From a bacterium (lineage in GTDB: Bacteria; Sysuimicrobiota; Sysuimicrobiia; Sysuimicrobiales; Kaftiobacteriaceae): a DNA stretch of 24,111 nt. The stretch's first letter is position 1. Each line of letters starts with the position of its first letter. The position numbers were made by a program. This document shows, one piece after another, positions 1 through 9,000 of the stretch. The stretch covers positions 1-24,111 of the forward strand of contig JBIOWP010000085.1 of assembly GCA_044868695.1 (NCBI GenBank). The letters run 5' to 3'.

Positions 1-3000
1 CGGAGACAGGTTGTGGCCTTCGAGAAGCTTAACCCGCGCGGGTCAGCGAAGGCACAGCCTGCCTCCGCCTAGTTTCGGGGTCCCCACAAGTTCGCTCCCG
101 CGAATTTGTGGGGTGCAGACAGATGCAGCCGCGCGGGAGTTGCGGACGCAGGACGTCAGAGGAACTCATGTGTGTCCCACATTCTACCACATCACGCTTC
201 TGCCGGACGCGGCGCGCCGCCGATCTTCCCGCGGCCCCGGTAGGCGCGGATCGCCGGCAAGGCAAACAGCAGCGCGCTAGCCACGATGAAGACCATCGCA
301 ATGGGACGGCCCAAGAAGAACAGTGGAGTCCCGTCCCCCATGATCAGGCTCTGGCGCAGCGCCTGCTCGGTCATGTCGCCCAGCACCAGCGCAACCACGA
401 GCGGCGCCAGCGGGTAGCCGAGCTTCTTGAACCCGTACCCGACGACGCCCGACCCCAGCATGATCCACAAGTCCAGGACCTGGTTGTTCGTCGCGTATGC
501 TCCGATGCTGGACATGATGACGATCAACGGCGCCAGGATCCCGAACGGGATCCGGTTGATCGCCGCAAATACCGGCACCATGGTCAGTACGATCAGCACG
601 CCAAGGACGTTGGCGACGTACATCGACCCGATCAAACCCCACACAAACTCGCGCTGCTCCGTGAACAGCAGCGGCCCCGGGTTGAGGCCCCAGATGAAGA
701 ATCCGGCCAGCATCACGGCGGCTGTGGGGGATCCGGGGATGCCCAGCGTGATCATCGGCAGCAGCGACCCAATGCCGGCGGAGTGCGCGGCCGTCTCCGG
801 GGCGACGACGCCCTCGACTTCGCCTTTGCCGAACCGCTCCGGATGCTTGCTAAACTGCTTGGCCAGCCCGTAGCTCATGAACGACGCAGGCGTGGCGCCG
901 GTGCCGGGCAGGACGCCGATCCAGAAGCCGAGGATGGTGCTCCGGACGATAGTGGCGAAATAGCGCGGGAACATCCGCCAGGTCTCCCACACGTCCCCGA
1001 AGCTGACGCGCCCCTTGACCCCCTCCAGCTTCAGGCCCTCTTCCACCGTCAGGAAGATCTCCCCCAGGCCGAACAGCCCGATAGCAATGACGATGAAGTT
1101 GATGCCGCTCTGCAGTTCGATGAAGCCGAAGTTCATACGCGGCTGCCCGCTGACGATGTCAAAGCCCACGGTGCTGAGCAGCAGCCCGAGCAGGGTCATC
1201 AAAATGGTCTTGGCCGGCTGCCCGCCGCCCAGCCCGGTAAACGTGGCGAACGCCAGCAGCAGCACGGCGAAGTTCTCGGGCGGTCCAAATTTGAGGGCAA
1301 TCTCAGCTAGCGGCGGCGCGAAGAACGTGAACAAGAGGATGGACACGAGGGCGCCGATGAACGAGGAGCTGAACGCCGCCGTCAGCGCGAGCCCCGGCCG
1401 TCCCTGCTTGGCCAGCGGGTGGCCGTCGAAGGTCGTCGCCACCGACCAGGGCTCCCCGGGGATGTTGAACAGGATCGAGGTGATGGCACCGCCGAAGATC
1501 GCGCCCCAGTACACCGAAGCCAGCAGGATGATCGCGCCGGTGGGCGTCAGTGTGAACGTCAGTGGCAGCAGCAGTGCCACTCCGTTCGTCCCGCCCAGCC
1601 CCGGCAGCACACCGATCGCGGTGCCGAGGATCAATCCGATCACCGCGATGAGGAGATGCGCCGGCGCGAGGGCGACGCCTAGGCCGTACAGGAGATCGTT
1701 GAAGACAGACAGGACGCTCATGCTCTATTTCCCGTACAGGAGCGTCTCGAGGATGATGCCTTTCGGTAGGGGCAGCAAGAACCACCGTTCGAAGATGAAA
1801 AAGAGCGCAAGCGGCACCAGCACGCTGACCAGGGCGATCGAAATCCAGCGGTGCCGCCCGACAAGCCACATGTAGCCGGCGAGGTAGATCGCGCCACCGA
1901 TGTAGATCCCCAGCAGGTCCAGCAGGACGATCACCGCCACCATCGGCGCGAAGACCACCACGAGCGGCTTCCACGCGTATCCGGGAATGAAGGGAGCCGC
2001 GTCGCGGTCGATCGTCTGCGGGCGCAGGCTCTGCACCACCACGATCGCGGCGGTCAGCAGCACGCCGACGGACAGCCAGAAGGGGAAGAAGCCGGCGCCG
2101 GGCCCGATCGATGTCCAGGTCACCGACAGATGCAGCGCCTGCCAAACCATCGCGCCGGCGCCGACCAGGAGCGCGGCCGCAACGGCTGTTTCTGCCTTGC
2201 GCATGATGCCTCCCAGGGGTGGTGGAGAGCGTACGTGCAGTGGGCGGGCGCAGAGCCCACGCCCGCCCACGCCTGCGCTACTGCTCGGCCAGACCGCCTT
2301 TGATCATCAAGTTCTTCACCGTGGCGTCCTTCTGATCGAGGTATCGCAAGAACTCCGCTCCGGTCAGGAACGCCTTGGTGAACGCGCCACGCTCGATGAA
2401 GTCTGCCATCTCCGGCGTGTCCATCAACTTGCTGAACACGCCCTGGTAGAAGGCCACGGCATCAGGCGGCATGTTGGCGGTCCCGAACACACCGCGCAGC
2501 ATCTGATACTCGATGGGAAATCCCAGCTCCTTCATGGTCGGGACGTCCTTCCACTGCGGCGACTGCACCCGGTCGCTGGCGAAGATCGCCAGCGGGCGTA
2601 CGCGGCCGCCCTCCCAATGACCGACCATCTCGAGCGGGTTGTTCACCGTGAAATCGACCTGCTTGCCCACCACCGCCGCCGCCACCGCCCCGCCGCCCGA
2701 GAACGGCACGTACGTGAAGTCGACGTCCCACGCCTGCTCCAGCAAGACCATGATGATCTCGTCTTCCTGCTTGCTGCCGGTGCCGGCCATCTTGAAGCTG
2801 CCCTTGGGCGCCGCCTTGGCGGCTTTCTCGAAGTCGGCGACCGCCTTCCACGGCGAATCCGCGGGGATCGTCAGGGCGAAGTTGTCCAGCAGCAGCCGCG
2901 CGATGGGCGTCAGGTCGCGCCAGGAGAAGCGGGAGCCGTCCCGCTTGCGGATGACCTGCGCCACCGGCGTCGCGAAGAGGTTGTCCAGCGTGATGAGGAT

Positions 3001-6000: not shown

Positions 6001-9000
6001 TGACGTCGAAACAGGAGTCCGGACACTGCAGCCAGCACAGCGTGCACTTCACGCACGTGTCGAAGTCCACGACCGGCCGCATCGTGCGGGTGGAGAACTT
6101 CTTGAAGACCGGATTGCGGTCGGGACGGAACCCGCCGGTCTGCTGCGTGGCCGGGTCGGAAAAGCCCGCTCCGGTGGGAATGCTGGGGATCGCCAGGCCT
6201 TCCCGCATCTCGAACCACTTGGGGAGCTCGAACTCGTAGGGTTTCTCTGGATTGCCTTCCGTCGGCTGCACCGGCCGTGTCGTGGTCCGATCGTGAGCCT
6301 TGCGCGCCGAGGCCACCTTCAGGGTGTCATTCCACTCCTCCAGAATCGCCTTCTCCACGGCGTCGATGCGGAACAGCTCCGGCAGCACTTTAGCAATGGC
6401 GCCAAGGATGCGCACGTCGGTGTGGTCGTCTTTGTACACCCACAGGCCGGCGAAACTCGGGATGCCCTTCACGATCGCCAGATTGTAGGGTGCGTCCTTC
6501 CGGTGGGCCATCGTCACCAGCGACTCCGCGGGCTGCATCGAGGTCACCATCAGGGTGCCGCCGGGCTTGAGGAGCCGGTTGATGGGCTGCAGTCCGTACC
6601 AGGCCCAGGACTCCACGCCCTTGCACAGCGTGTCGTCGACCGCAATCGAGATGTCGACTTCCTTGGGCTCGTACTTCGCCATCCCCTCCTGCAGCGTCTC
6701 GTCGTCCGTGGCGACGATCGCGAAGTTCTTCGCCGGGATCCCGTTGCGCTCGGGGCTGTCGCCGTAGCGGCCAAACGAAATGCCCGTCTTGCCGGCGCGC
6801 TTGGCGGCAAGCACGATCCCGCGGCTGATGTTCTTGGCCAGGTTCTTCTGGAAGATGCCGCGGTAGACGATTTCCACTGCAAAGAGACGGCCCACTGGTT
6901 AGCCTCCCACGCGGGGTGAGTGCTGTCGGAGCAAGACGTCTTCGATCTCTTCCAGGTGCTGGTGCATCGCCGCCTCGGCGGAGGCCGCGTCGCGGCGCCG
7001 GATCGCCTCCAGGATGCGGTGGTGTCCGTCGAGCGACCGTTCGAGTCGGCCGGTGACCTGCAGCGAGCGCTCGCGGCTCTCGCGCAGCAGGTCCATCAAC
7101 ACGTCCAGGACCCGCAGGATCACCTTGTTGCTGGCGGCGGTGGCGATAGCGTAGTGGAACTCTGAGTCCTCATCGATGGCCAGCTGGCCCTGGCGGACCT
7201 TCTCGCGCTGGCGGTTGAAAATCGCCTCCAGCGATGACACATCGTCGGGTGTGGCATGCGCCGCTGCGCGGGCGGCCACCCCCGGCTCGATCAGCTTGCG
7301 AACGTCCCAGAGATCGGCAAGCAGCGTCCGGTTGCGGACCAGCAGTGACGCCAGCGGACTGACCAATGAGTCCGGAGACAGATCCCTGACCACCGTCCCC
7401 TCGCCCTGGCGGGGCTCGAGGAGACCCATCAACTCCAGTACGCGGATCGCGTCCCGCACGGACGTCCGGCTGACGCCCAGCCTCTCTGCCAGTTCGCGCT
7501 CGGGCGGCAGGTGGTCCCCCGGCTGCAGGCGGCCGTCGTTGATCAGCCGCTGAATTTGCGCAGCGACTTCCTCATAGACGCGGGTCTTGCGGACAGGTTC
7601 CAGCTCGTCTTTGACTGCGGCGGGTGAGGTAATTGTTGACTCCGGACGTGAGGAATGGTCCATTGGTCAGACCATTGCTAATGTCGCACAGTGTCCGGGC
7701 CCTGTCAAGCAAGAAAGATCATCAATGGGTCAGGTGAGGGTCCAGGCGTCTTTCCAGCTTTGGGGGAGCGGCAGGTCGGCGATATTCGCGTAGAACGCCC
7801 ACATCCCATGGTGAAGCGTCTCGTGCTGCAGCAGCCGCAGAAGGTGCTGGAGGAGGGTGAGTGTGGCCCCGCCCCAATCGATGGGCCGCGCCAGTTGCTC
7901 GGGCGTCAGCTTCCGCAGCGCCGTGAGCAGTTCTTCATCTAGATGGTGCATGTAGGCGGCCAGATTTTCCTTCGACTGTTCCAGCGCCCGCTGGCGGGGC
8001 GCCCGGAAATCCATCCTGCCGGTGCCGATGGCCGCGACATAGCAGCCCTGGATGTCGGCCGCGTGGCGCATCTGCCTGACGAGCGTCCCAAACCCCGGTT
8101 GTGGAGAGAAGTTCATCACCGCGTACGGCAACGCCCGAAGCAGGTCGTAGGTCAACGCGCGCGTCTGCCTCCACGCCTCTGCCCACTGCGCGATGTCGGG
8201 GGTGGGGAAAGCGTCGCCAGCCCCCTGGTCCGCGGTCCCCGTTCCGGTCATTGCAGCGATTGCGCCTCCCGCAGGGCCGCGCGCCCCTCGCGCACCGCCT
8301 GGAAGAAGGCCGGCTCGTCCTTCAAGGCGGCGGTCCGCGGGCGCGGCAGATTCACGGCGACTTCCCGCACGATGCTGGACCCGGTGCGCGGCGACGCCCC
8401 CCGGCCCATGACGACCACGCGGTCCGACAGAAAGACCGCCTCCTCGATCGAGTGCGTGACGAAGATGATGGTGAGGTTTCGCAGCTCATACAGCCGCAGC
8501 AGCTCCAGATTCATCCGGTCGCGGGTGATCTCATCCAGCGCCCCGAACGGCTCGTCGAGCAGCAAGACCTGCGGGTCGAGCGTGAGCGCGCGCGCGAGCG
8601 CGACGCGCTGCTGCATCCCGCCGGACAGCTTCTCGGGATGGTAGCGTGCAAACGCCTCTAGCTCCACCATCCGCAGGACCTGCTGTGTCTGCGCCAGGTA
8701 CTGTCCGCGGTGAGCCCGCCACGCCCACCACCGCGGATCGCGGAGCCGCAGCGGCAGCAGGACGTTTTCCTCCACCGTGAGCCATTCGAACAGGACGGGC
8801 TGCTGGAAGATGACCGAGGACAGCCCTCCCTGCACGGCCTCGCGCGGCGGTCGGCCGCACACTTCGAGCCGTCCCGCCGTGGGTACGCGGATGCCGGCCA
8901 GCAGGAACAGGACGGTGGTCTTGCCGCATCCGGAGGGGCCGATGACGGAGACAAACTCCCCCCGCTGGACGTCCAGGGTGACATTCAGCACCACGTCCAG

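Follow-up and report, generated by a model that had tools for sequence, protein, structure and literature searches.

A repressor-led operon of Sysuimicrobiota encodes a probable oxalate-oxidizing ferredoxin oxidoreductase together with a tripartite importer

The operon described here, from an uncultured, oxygen-respiring bacterium of the phylum Sysuimicrobiota, probably serves the CoA-independent oxidation of oxalate to 2 CO2 and reduced ferredoxin, fed by a tripartite tricarboxylate transporter (TTT) importer; the substrate may alternatively be another small acid. The operon lies in a window of 24,111 nucleotides, and coordinates are positions on contig JBIOWP010000085.1. On the sequences compared, its enzyme belongs to a distinct sister clade of the Moorella-type oxalate oxidoreductase (OOR) rather than to that type itself. 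Oxalate oxidation had been put forward in the genome-wide survey's note; we still infer this function, now with better support from gene context that is independent of the enzyme's own sequence.

Structure of the operon

Seven minus-strand genes in one orientation (192–7663, Table 1) encode a FadR/GntR repressor, the three subunits of a 2-oxoacid:ferredoxin oxidoreductase (OFOR) and TctCBA, which confirms the arrangement described in the survey. All three Pfam domains of tripartite tricarboxylate transporters (TctABC/Bug) are found in the one operon, each above its cut-off. Start codons were revised using RBS-like sequences and relatives for alpha (5655), beta (4417), tctC (3288) and tctB (2204). 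The hairpin between beta and tctC is one of nine terminator-like sites, where 4.5 are expected by chance, and may act as a terminator for part of the transcripts or as a stabilizer.

Table 1. Features of the operon on contig JBIOWP010000085.1
Feature	Position	Strand	Evidence
FadR-subfamily GntR repressor (GntR + FCD), 254 aa	6899..7663	-	Pfam PF00392 + PF07729
OFOR gamma-delta fusion (domains III + V), 411 aa	5660..6895	-	NCBIfam, 5C4I match, Foldseek
OFOR alpha (domains I-II), 408 aa	4429..5655	-	NCBIfam, 5C4I sequence and structure match
OFOR beta (domain VI), 341 aa	3392..4417	-	NCBIfam, GDG TPP motif
12-bp hairpin between beta and tctC	3334..3365	-	terminator-like site scan
TctC substrate-binding protein, 336 aa	2278..3288	-	PF03401
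TctB small membrane subunit, 159 aa	1725..2204	-	PF07331
TctA large membrane subunit, 509 aa	192..1721	-	PF01970, E 2.6e-153
Palindrome TGGTCTGACCA, probable operator	7664..7674		directly before repressor ATG

The NCBIfam models nearest to the repressor are NanR, LldR, PdhR and GlcC, all below cut-off. A homologue is present at 133 of the 160 related loci used here to compare gene context (70/80 plus 63/80); these loci are related and not independent. The palindrome TGGTCTGACCA, which we take to resemble FadR-subfamily sites, is probably the operator: either it or TGGTCTAACCA occurs at the same position in loci L001–L005 and L007. A looser GGT-N3-ACC precedes gntR in just 14 of the 67 loci that could be scored, and the pattern TGGTCNGACCA occurs four times in the whole genome. 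There is a TTGACA at 7708–7703, where the promoter scan called no site.

Relationship of the enzyme to oxalate oxidoreductase

The features of the OFOR superfamily are present, namely domains I-II, III, VI (with the TPP motif and proximal cluster cysteines) and the ferredoxin domain V. The closest known system is the OOR of Moorella thermoacetica (EC 1.2.7.10; PDB 5C4I, 5EXD, 5EXE; NCBIfam NF045790-2). As the survey had reported, the best NCBIfam matches are OxalOxred models, below their cut-offs, for alpha (E 6.1e-113, 377.9 bits, cut-off 500), beta (E 2.1e-100, 335.7 bits, cut-off 590) and delta (E 1.3e-24, 86.9 bits, cut-off 230). They outscore PorA, PorB and PorD, with PorA close behind for alpha (360 vs 378 bits). 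Each subunit also has 5C4I as its top PDB sequence match, as does delta in Foldseek (E 1e-20), and the structure of alpha matches 5C4I_A with Z 51.2 (rmsd 2.2, 387 residues aligned, 42% identity), compared with Z 49.5 for 9BT4_A.

The closeness to Moorella OOR claimed earlier stands as regards the top match of every subunit, but needs qualification. One mark of the Moorella type is a score over the NF045790/1/2 cut-offs, which no subunit reaches, whereas Moorella-type alphas from other loci exceed theirs (575, 583 and 587 bits). A quick tree search, in which OOR-type rows stood in for the Moorella enzyme's own sequence, unites the alphas carrying the arginine motif (SH-aLRT 98) and sets them apart from 38 other OFOR alphas. 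Inside this branch the clade of the operon's enzyme (SH-aLRT 100) is separate from the OOR-type rows (99).

Like the Moorella enzyme, the operon's enzyme has three subunits, with domains III and V fused, no glycine-rich loop in domain III, and ligand sets for three [4Fe-4S] clusters. The motifs YPIRPY, R-x-LD and DNESYAN, said to be kept, were all found in the alignment to 5C4I. In alpha, residues Arg31, Glu59, Arg109, Phe117 and Gln211 of OOR are retained as R42, E70, R120, F128 and Q223. Beta has cluster cysteines 35/38/63/237 and N155 for Asn143, delta has eight cysteines for two clusters (281–291 and 311–321), and all 12 cluster cysteines of the three subunits are retained. The active site is not kept throughout, however. 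Asp116 of the switch loop is replaced by A127, as had been noticed before (RALDDPGAF here, RTLDPPGDF in OOR), with D124 for Pro113 and D45 for Thr34 also in alpha, and D157 for Gly145 in beta (DNESYANTD). In the gamma/delta subunit a remodelled segment, SFAGLWVYKDDH, takes the place of the Glu154 loop; it is shorter and lacks EG, and the profile alignment ends before it, so that it is unaligned. EG is invariant in 4/4 Moorella-type genes. Delta also carries a C-terminal extension of about 50 residues (approximately 337–385), missing from Moorella OOR, and identity to that enzyme is about 42% in alpha and 23% in delta.

YPIRPY and the DDPG[AS]F loop lacking Asp116 are each found in 160/160 loci, and the NTD of beta in 141/141 loci with the motif inside the locus. 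The two aspartates gained, alpha Asp124 and beta Asp157, are invariant and are present wherever Asp116 is lost. In OOR, Arg31alpha is credited with binding the oxalate anion and Asp116alpha is central to the bait-and-switch mechanism (PMC5020499), while Glu154 is listed as catalytic (PMC12654022). The invariant Asp157 may take the place of Glu154.

The source annotation is "pyruvate ferredoxin oxidoreductase", and with PorA and 9BT4 scoring so close behind, an ordinary CoA-dependent pyruvate or 2-oxoglutarate:ferredoxin oxidoreductase has to be considered; we regard this as highly improbable. PorABCD-type OFORs (for example Methanosarcina acetivorans PFOR, PDB 9BT4; NF040682) have the same domain set and fold and are the second-best matches, but they have YPITP, HGRGGQG and NTG motifs, depend on CoA, and have separate gamma and delta subunits. 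The glycine-rich loop of OFOR domain III binds CoA. The PorABCD marks, the YPITP threonine and an HGRGGQG-type loop, are both missing from the operon's enzyme, which groups with the OOR-type rows; delta has YRGIFQK at the site of the HGRGGQG that is present in control gamma subunits. The genome also carries a separate two-subunit OFOR (KorAB-type) and three E1-alpha-like genes, all below the PDH cut-off. Domain III is described as CoA-binding in the relevant part of PMC13768988. The five-subunit, O2-tolerant For/Por enzymes of Hydrogenobacter and Aquifex are likewise OFORs of oxygen-exposed bacteria (PMC13768988, PMC10052474), but they are described as requiring CoA and a fifth, CO_dh-like subunit (PMC10052474), which sets the operon apart. 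It has no gene for such a subunit: the stretch from gntR to tctC holds just three OFOR genes.

Gene context in related loci

Of the 160 loci, 88 have an OxlT-family gene and 18 have TctC, with no overlap, and 101 of these 106 genes lie directly downstream of beta. Where at least 1.5 kb of downstream sequence is available, 95/110 loci carry one or the other. The five OxlT proteins tested exceed TIGR04259 (449–535 bits vs 335), with 8HPJ as best PDB match, although one narrowly passes the L-lactate transporter model too (325 vs 320). An oxalate-CoA ligase is present in 42/160 loci and a PanE-like reductase in 49/160; in the PDB the ligase best matches oxalate-CoA ligases (E 1e-126 to 1e-87), ahead of the next family at 1e-72. 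None of 15 control loci with YPITP-type OFORs of Sysuimicrobiota has OxlT, TctC, ligase or PanE-like neighbours, which again argues against an ordinary OFOR.

The related clusters share OxlT, oxalate-CoA ligase and PanE-like reductase with Frc/Oxc/OxlT oxalotrophy and with the oxalyl-CoA synthetase/PanE2 route, panE2 being the oxalyl-CoA reductase (PMC12686821). They differ in having no oxc and in using an OFOR, apparently in an oxidative role. Oxc was above cut-off in 0/94 Sysuimicrobiota genomes and 0/50 other carriers, and these oxalate clusters are therefore without the Oxc route.

OxlT is the commonest partner, and the switch aspartate and plug-loop glutamate are altered, which would suit a conversion of oxalate to formate (or formyl-CoA) and CO2 with OxlT as a true oxalate:formate antiporter. 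This is very unlikely, given that the cluster cysteines are all retained and that Moorella-type OORs neighbour OxlT as well: two from a random Acidobacteriota sample (L147, L148) have OxlT/GntR neighbours, one also with ligase and PanE. In addition, the TctCBA that replaces OxlT here belongs to a family of importers, not antiporters, and the operon's genome has no formate dehydrogenase alpha above cut-off, NuoG being the sole match.

True Moorella-type OORs were found separately in Sysuimicrobiota. One adjoins the clade enzyme in 4/160 loci (L042, L043, L074, L152), and in genomes G006 and G048 it lies elsewhere; this fits two different jobs and two isoenzymes equally well. A Cdc48-like gene adjoins all four Moorella-type loci examined (L120, L147, L148, L229) but only 2/160 clade loci. 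In Acidobacteriota, the enzyme is often clustered with the ligase and PanE-like reductase, and such clusters also hold a glyoxylate aminotransferase and malate synthase.

The tandem loci and these glyoxylate-consuming genes, together with the loss of Asp116, the two new aspartates and the remodelled Glu154 loop, would also suit an enzyme of oxalate-linked metabolism that oxidizes, without CoA, some related small acid (glyoxylate, oxamate or a further C2-C3 oxo-acid); the new aspartates would then reshape the pocket to take a second group that is not a carboxylate. Moreover, in 2/4 annotated regions from cultured Alphaproteobacteria the nearest relatives of TctC are encoded about 7 kb from glyoxylate carboligase. 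We consider a related acid unlikely, as Arg31, to which binding of the oxalate anion is credited, is invariant, the partner transporter is of OxlT type, and 0/17 Sysuimicrobiota loci have a ligase or glyoxylate-making reductase, the enzyme standing there with a transporter alone.

Acidobacteriota clusters have every gene for the reverse path, from 2 CO2 to oxalate and, by ligase, PanE-like reductase, and aminotransferase or malate synthase, to carbon fixation via glyoxylate, and the phylum paper describes Sysuimicrobiota as partly autotrophic. We give this path hardly any credence. The repressor and importer point to catabolism, and the CO2/oxalate couple has a very low potential. OxlT, oxalate-CoA ligase and malate synthase are all missing from the operon's genome, where the sole PanE-like match is a distant one, so that the genome's own link to oxalate is indirect. 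Oxidation of oxalate remains our preferred reading.

The importer

TctC takes the slot filled elsewhere by OxlT, and is on gene context a candidate oxalate binder. An orthologue of at least 68% identity is present in 38/94 Sysuimicrobiota genomes, of which 36 also have the enzyme. All eight Sysuimicrobiota genomes with OxlT over cut-off carry the enzyme, adjacent in five, and none has a close TctC; about 21 of the 67 carriers in the phylum have neither kind of transporter. The closest solved TctC is the uncharacterized protein 4X9T (E 8e-31), and no oxalate-binding TTT was evident in a narrow slice of the literature.

Distribution

An alpha orthologue of at least 58% identity is present in 67/94 Sysuimicrobiota genomes, with TctC (at least 68%) no more than 6 kb away in 31 of the 67. 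The survey's smaller counts (22/31 genomes, 12 loci) were not reproduced as such, the counts here coming from larger sets. Contrary to what had been implied, the enzyme is not peculiar to Sysuimicrobiota: bins with the labels Acidobacteriota, Myxococcota, Verrucomicrobiota and Actinomycetota contain orthologues at 78–85% identity. Nor is the phylum simply aerobic, since the phylum paper describes facultative anaerobes, but the enzyme does track heme-copper oxidase, present in 64/67 Sysuimicrobiota carriers and 50/50 outside the phylum. Such hosts, and an importer that is TTT or OxlT, are further differences from Moorella OOR. The main text of PMC11604079 was correctly said to be silent on oxalate (0 occurrences).

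Discussion

We propose an inducible operon for oxalate uptake and oxidation. The FadR-type repressor would sit on the palindrome that precedes its own gene and leave it when oxalate or a derivative is present, and TctCBA would bring in oxalate, as its exchange with OxlT suggests. The three subunits have the motifs and fold of a TPP/3x[4Fe-4S] enzyme, in which, by homology to Moorella OOR, oxalate would be held by alpha Arg42 and Arg120 and beta Asn155, form a TPP adduct, and be released as 2 CO2 without CoA. Covariation suggests that the acid role of Asp116 has probably shifted to alpha Asp124 or beta Asp157. Two low-potential electrons would pass through the clusters to ferredoxin, and on to Fix-like/ETF proteins, the KorAB-type OFOR or the respiratory chain, for all of which genes are present. 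In the operon's genome, energy and reductant would be the sole yield; many Acidobacteriota would add an assimilation arm of oxalate-CoA ligase, PanE-like reductase, glyoxylate aminotransferase and malate synthase.

A bolder reading is possible, though we hold it only tentatively. The clade would be a second, undescribed class of OOR, widespread in oxygen-respiring soil bacteria, with the acid moved to alpha Asp124 or beta Asp157 and the conserved C-terminal extension of delta shielding the clusters from O2. It would supply aerobes directly with reduced ferredoxin from oxalate, with no need of CoA, Oxc, Frc or formate dehydrogenase. In the operon described here an oxalate-specific TTT would feed it, and the greater part of one common soil phylum would consist of oxalotrophs missed by oxc/frc surveys.

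Surveys of oxalate turnover in soil (the oxalate-carbonate pathway) use oxc, frc, oxdC and oxlT, and are held in a recent review to underestimate oxalotrophy (relevant parts of PMC13409138, PMC10192776); the review's pathway section gives no OOR route for aerobes (PMC13409138). As the related clusters adjoin oxalate genes in other soil bacteria, they may represent a route of oxalate breakdown missed by the usual markers. If so, 67/94 genomes of a prevalent phylum, and some Acidobacteriota and Myxococcota, would be unrecognized oxalotrophs mislabelled as PFOR, a label that could also mislead carbon-fixation calls. Because it lacks Asp116, the clade offers a natural test of the OOR bait-and-switch mechanism. 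Its enzyme is a candidate for the oxygen-tolerant interconversion of CO2 and oxalate, and the operon a candidate source of the first oxalate-binding TctC.

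Operon layout and regulation

The operon observation is genuine. The spacing among its first four genes (gntR, delta, alpha and beta) is 3–11 nt.

Genes of the operon under study
Gene	Position	Strand	Description
gntR	6899-7663	minus	FadR/GntR repressor, candidate operator TGGTCTGACCA
OFOR gamma-delta fusion (delta)	5660-6895	minus	
OFOR alpha	4429-5655	minus	
OFOR beta	3392-4417	minus	
tctC	2278-3288	minus	
tctB	1725-2204	minus	
tctA	192-1721	minus	

The candidate operator is kept mainly among the closest relatives. Other copies in the genome are found near aconitase, near TCA genes, within a coding region and presumably in rRNA. 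A genome-wide search with the operator pattern did not give a usable regulon. Rfam returned no matches anywhere in the window, including positions 1-190, a GC-rich non-coding stretch after tctA with a promoter-like start, TG-TAGAAT.

Enzyme family and active site

The top NCBIfam models for delta, alpha and beta are those of the Moorella oxalate oxidoreductase (OOR), every one scoring under its cut-off, and the best PDB sequence match of each of the three subunits is the OOR structure 5C4I. This is also the best fold match of the delta model, while for the alpha model it comes ahead of a methanogen PFOR by a small margin (Z 51.2 vs. 49.5). In 5C4I numbering, the window enzyme retains Arg31 (of YPIRP), Glu59, Arg109, Phe117, Gln211 and beta Asn143, together with all twelve cluster cysteines. 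The available text of PMC5020499 describes YPIRP as unique to OOR, with Arg31 binding the oxalate anion and forming a bait-and-switch pair with Asp116. The position of Asp116 is occupied by Ala in the window enzyme; the genome-wide survey's note had cautioned about this and about the scores under the cut-offs, and both caveats hold.

A second key residue listed in the available part of PMC12654022 is Glu154 of the third OOR subunit. The EG motif around it is shared by all four Moorella-type genes found but is absent from the window delta, whose segment cannot be aligned with theirs. These losses are accompanied by two new acids: alpha Pro113 is replaced by Asp, in a loop DDPG[AS]F present in all 160 loci compared, and beta Gly145 by Asp (NTD) in all 141 loci containing the motif. 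A third, alpha Thr34 to Asp, is not universal across loci. The missing Asp116 and Glu154 and the scores under the OOR cut-offs allow for a small acid other than oxalate as substrate.

In domain III, the enzyme has YRGIFQK where control OFORs have HGRGGQG, the loop that binds CoA; Moorella OOR likewise lacks this loop. An extension of some 50 residues is conserved in the delta subunit, with HGF-x-x-x-GQY in 132 of the 160 loci; AlphaFold predicts this extension as a helix with good confidence at about 341–360 and poor confidence beyond 367. The alpha switch loop (121–130) has pLDDT below 50, and the models did not give a residue-level answer.

Phylogeny

A quick tree of 67 rows combined the window alpha with 16 of the 80 alphas from the loci and 50 of the 150 library representatives, the Moorella protein itself not being a row. 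The alphas with the Arg motif group on a single branch (support 98), apart from 38 other rows. Because the window enzyme and its orthologues form a separate branch (100) beside the OOR-type rows (99), two of which exceed the OOR cut-off, the enzyme is, by its sequence, a sister clade of OOR and lies outside the OOR family proper. We consider it quite probable that it nevertheless works like OOR, this being a predicted activity. The closest relatives that have a name are CSP1-3-type bins, among them one labelled Candidatus Sysuimicrobiota. Readings as a plain PFOR or as a five-subunit For were rejected.

Other alphas with the Arg motif fall outside both clades, namely the types P0130 (FPIRPYT and DDPGNF) and P0257 (LPIRPTT and DQPGSF). 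A deeper subgroup at 57–60% identity (L125:6365-8821, L132 and L146) has YPIRPYT and DNESAANTD with a different delta tail; L125 and L132 carry TctCBA.

Gene context

The main new evidence for the oxalate link is the gene context. The 160 loci were the best 80 from genomes by identity to the window and the best 80 from metagenomes by identity to the library representative P0121, and are related rather than independent. Neighbours were assigned as the oxalate transporter OxlT or as TctC by tblastn score. An OxlT-like gene is present in 88/160 loci and TctC in 18/160, never both; 101 of these 106 genes are directly downstream of beta, and one transporter or the other is present in 95 of the 110 loci with room downstream. 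All five OxlT proteins scanned pass TIGR04259, and the one aligned to 8HPJ retains Arg272 and Lys355, residues that act in oxalate binding. The loci also contain genes resembling oxalate-CoA ligase (42/160; best PDB matches 6QJZ, 5IE0 and 8AFF), PanE (49/160) and glyoxylate aminotransferase (34/160), and malate synthase (9/160). A possible counterpart of the PanE-like genes, panE2, is given as an oxalyl-CoA reductase in the available part of PMC12686821. For the control set, 16 loci with weaker matches to alpha were taken and one of Moorella type was set aside; OxlT, TctC, ligase, PanE and GntR were found in none of the remaining 15.

Within the phylum, a close TctC is present in 36 of 67 carriers of the alpha orthologue vs. 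2 of 27 non-carriers. OxlT exceeds its cut-off in eight phylum genomes, all carriers and none with a close TctC. Against the oxalate reading, about 21 of the 67 carriers show neither transporter. No Oxc over the cut-off was found in the 94 phylum genomes or in 50 other carriers.

The Moorella-type OORs at L147 and L148 have OxlT and GntR neighbours, with ligase and PanE also at L147, so the sister clade and Moorella-type OOR fill the same kind of cluster. Both enzymes occur in tandem in 4/160 loci and elsewhere in the same genome in G006 and G048, which likewise allows for a different acid as substrate. Moorella-type alpha passes NF045791 wherever scanned.

Moorella-type OORs of Sysuimicrobiota and Acidobacteriota also lie beside a Cdc48-like AAA ATPase (L120, at G006:C84:1-9000; L229, L147, L148 and L152). 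Those directly adjoining a sister-clade operon (L042:6364-11264, L043:10632-15520, L074:735-5705) have as second gene a 610-residue NAD(P)-binding flavoprotein of glutamate-synthase-beta type, which suggests direct NAD(P) wiring.

Distribution and oxygen

The alpha is present at at least 58% identity in 67 of 94 phylum genomes (72 matches, less five genomes with best matches of 35–39%) and in 39 of 54 of high quality; the tallies include unpublished G017 and G025. A system confined to Sysuimicrobiota is rejected, as orthologues at 78–85% identity are present among bins with the labels Acidobacteriota, Myxococcota, Verrucomicrobiota, Actinomycetota and Dormiibacterota. A trait common across Acidobacteriota is rejected as well: apart from the centre, the sister clade is present in 5 of the 250 genomes sampled, and two more have the Moorella type. 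Three Acidobacteriota genomes (G103, G283 and G366; L139-L143) have two sister-clade operons, whose identities to the window are about 80% and 73%; OxlT and GntR accompany both copies.

Heme-copper oxidase subunit I is present in 64 of 67 phylum carriers vs. 18 of 27 non-carriers (counted by hand), and in all 50 carriers counted outside the phylum, out of about 63 such loci. NO reductases fall under PF00115 too, but most scores are within the oxidase range. Unlike the rest of the phylum, genus g19 (G027-G034) lacks the oxidase in all eight genomes, and also lacks the enzyme and TctC, a joint absence that is a single event and gives no statistic. The genome-wide survey's note had called the phylum aerobic, which agrees with the oxidases of the carriers but not with the available text of PMC11604079, where it is facultatively anaerobic. 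As the note had said, oxalate is never mentioned in the main text of that paper, as far as available. O2-stable OFORs are known in aerobes (PMC13768988, available part), so the presence of an OFOR in such an organism is no surprise as such.

Comparison with the literature and plasmids

Literature searches covered OOR, YPIRP, Acidobacteria oxalotrophy, Rokubacteria with oxalate and TTT importers with oxalate, subscription papers being mostly outside. Among the matches listed, no title or abstract opening reported the sister clade or OOR in oxygen-respiring soil bacteria. In the parts available, PMC8062136 omits OOR for want of information and PMC13409138 portrays aerobic oxalotrophy as CoA-dependent; the comparison also covered available parts of PMC13768988, PMC12337175, PMC10052474, PMC10192776, PMC13098242 and bioRxiv 2026.09.02.748891.

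TctC relatives (43–47% identity) occur on cultured alphaproteobacterial plasmids, with oxc, frc or OOR neighbours in none of four annotated regions; a fifth region has no annotation and is outside this count. A plasmid search with alpha gave matches of only 34–37%, and no cultured carrier was found there.

Other features of the window

Just upstream of the operon (7730-12222) are a cytosine deaminase, an NMT1/THI5-type ABC importer and a DinB gene, kept in 5–7 close relatives and possibly serving pyrimidine or thiamine-precursor salvage. A DUF2652-SRPBCC fusion on the minus strand is divergent from a pdxA-like gene (12713-14836); their long ORFs overlap, so the true starts are further in. A Nal1-like trypsin protease (18191-19454) is followed by a small ORF weakly similar (E 0.09) to a stretch in the protease's N-terminal part. 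Positions 19451-24036 encode TctC, a carboxymuconolactone-decarboxylase-like protein, an SDR, a DASS transporter, a cupin-like ORF and DinB, resembling a second acid-catabolism cluster.

Host metabolism

In the window's genome fixC/fixX-like genes lie directly after the nuo operon (G000:C107:32315-33926) and are a candidate sink for reduced ferredoxin. The genome is 95% complete. Within it, no oxc, frc or Fdh-alpha exceeds its cut-off, and OxlT, the ligase and malate synthase are all absent. It carries heme-copper oxidase, complex I, FixCX-like and ETF genes, a dicluster ferredoxin and a two-subunit OFOR. On this gene content, oxalate would be an electron source in this host, and not a carbon source.
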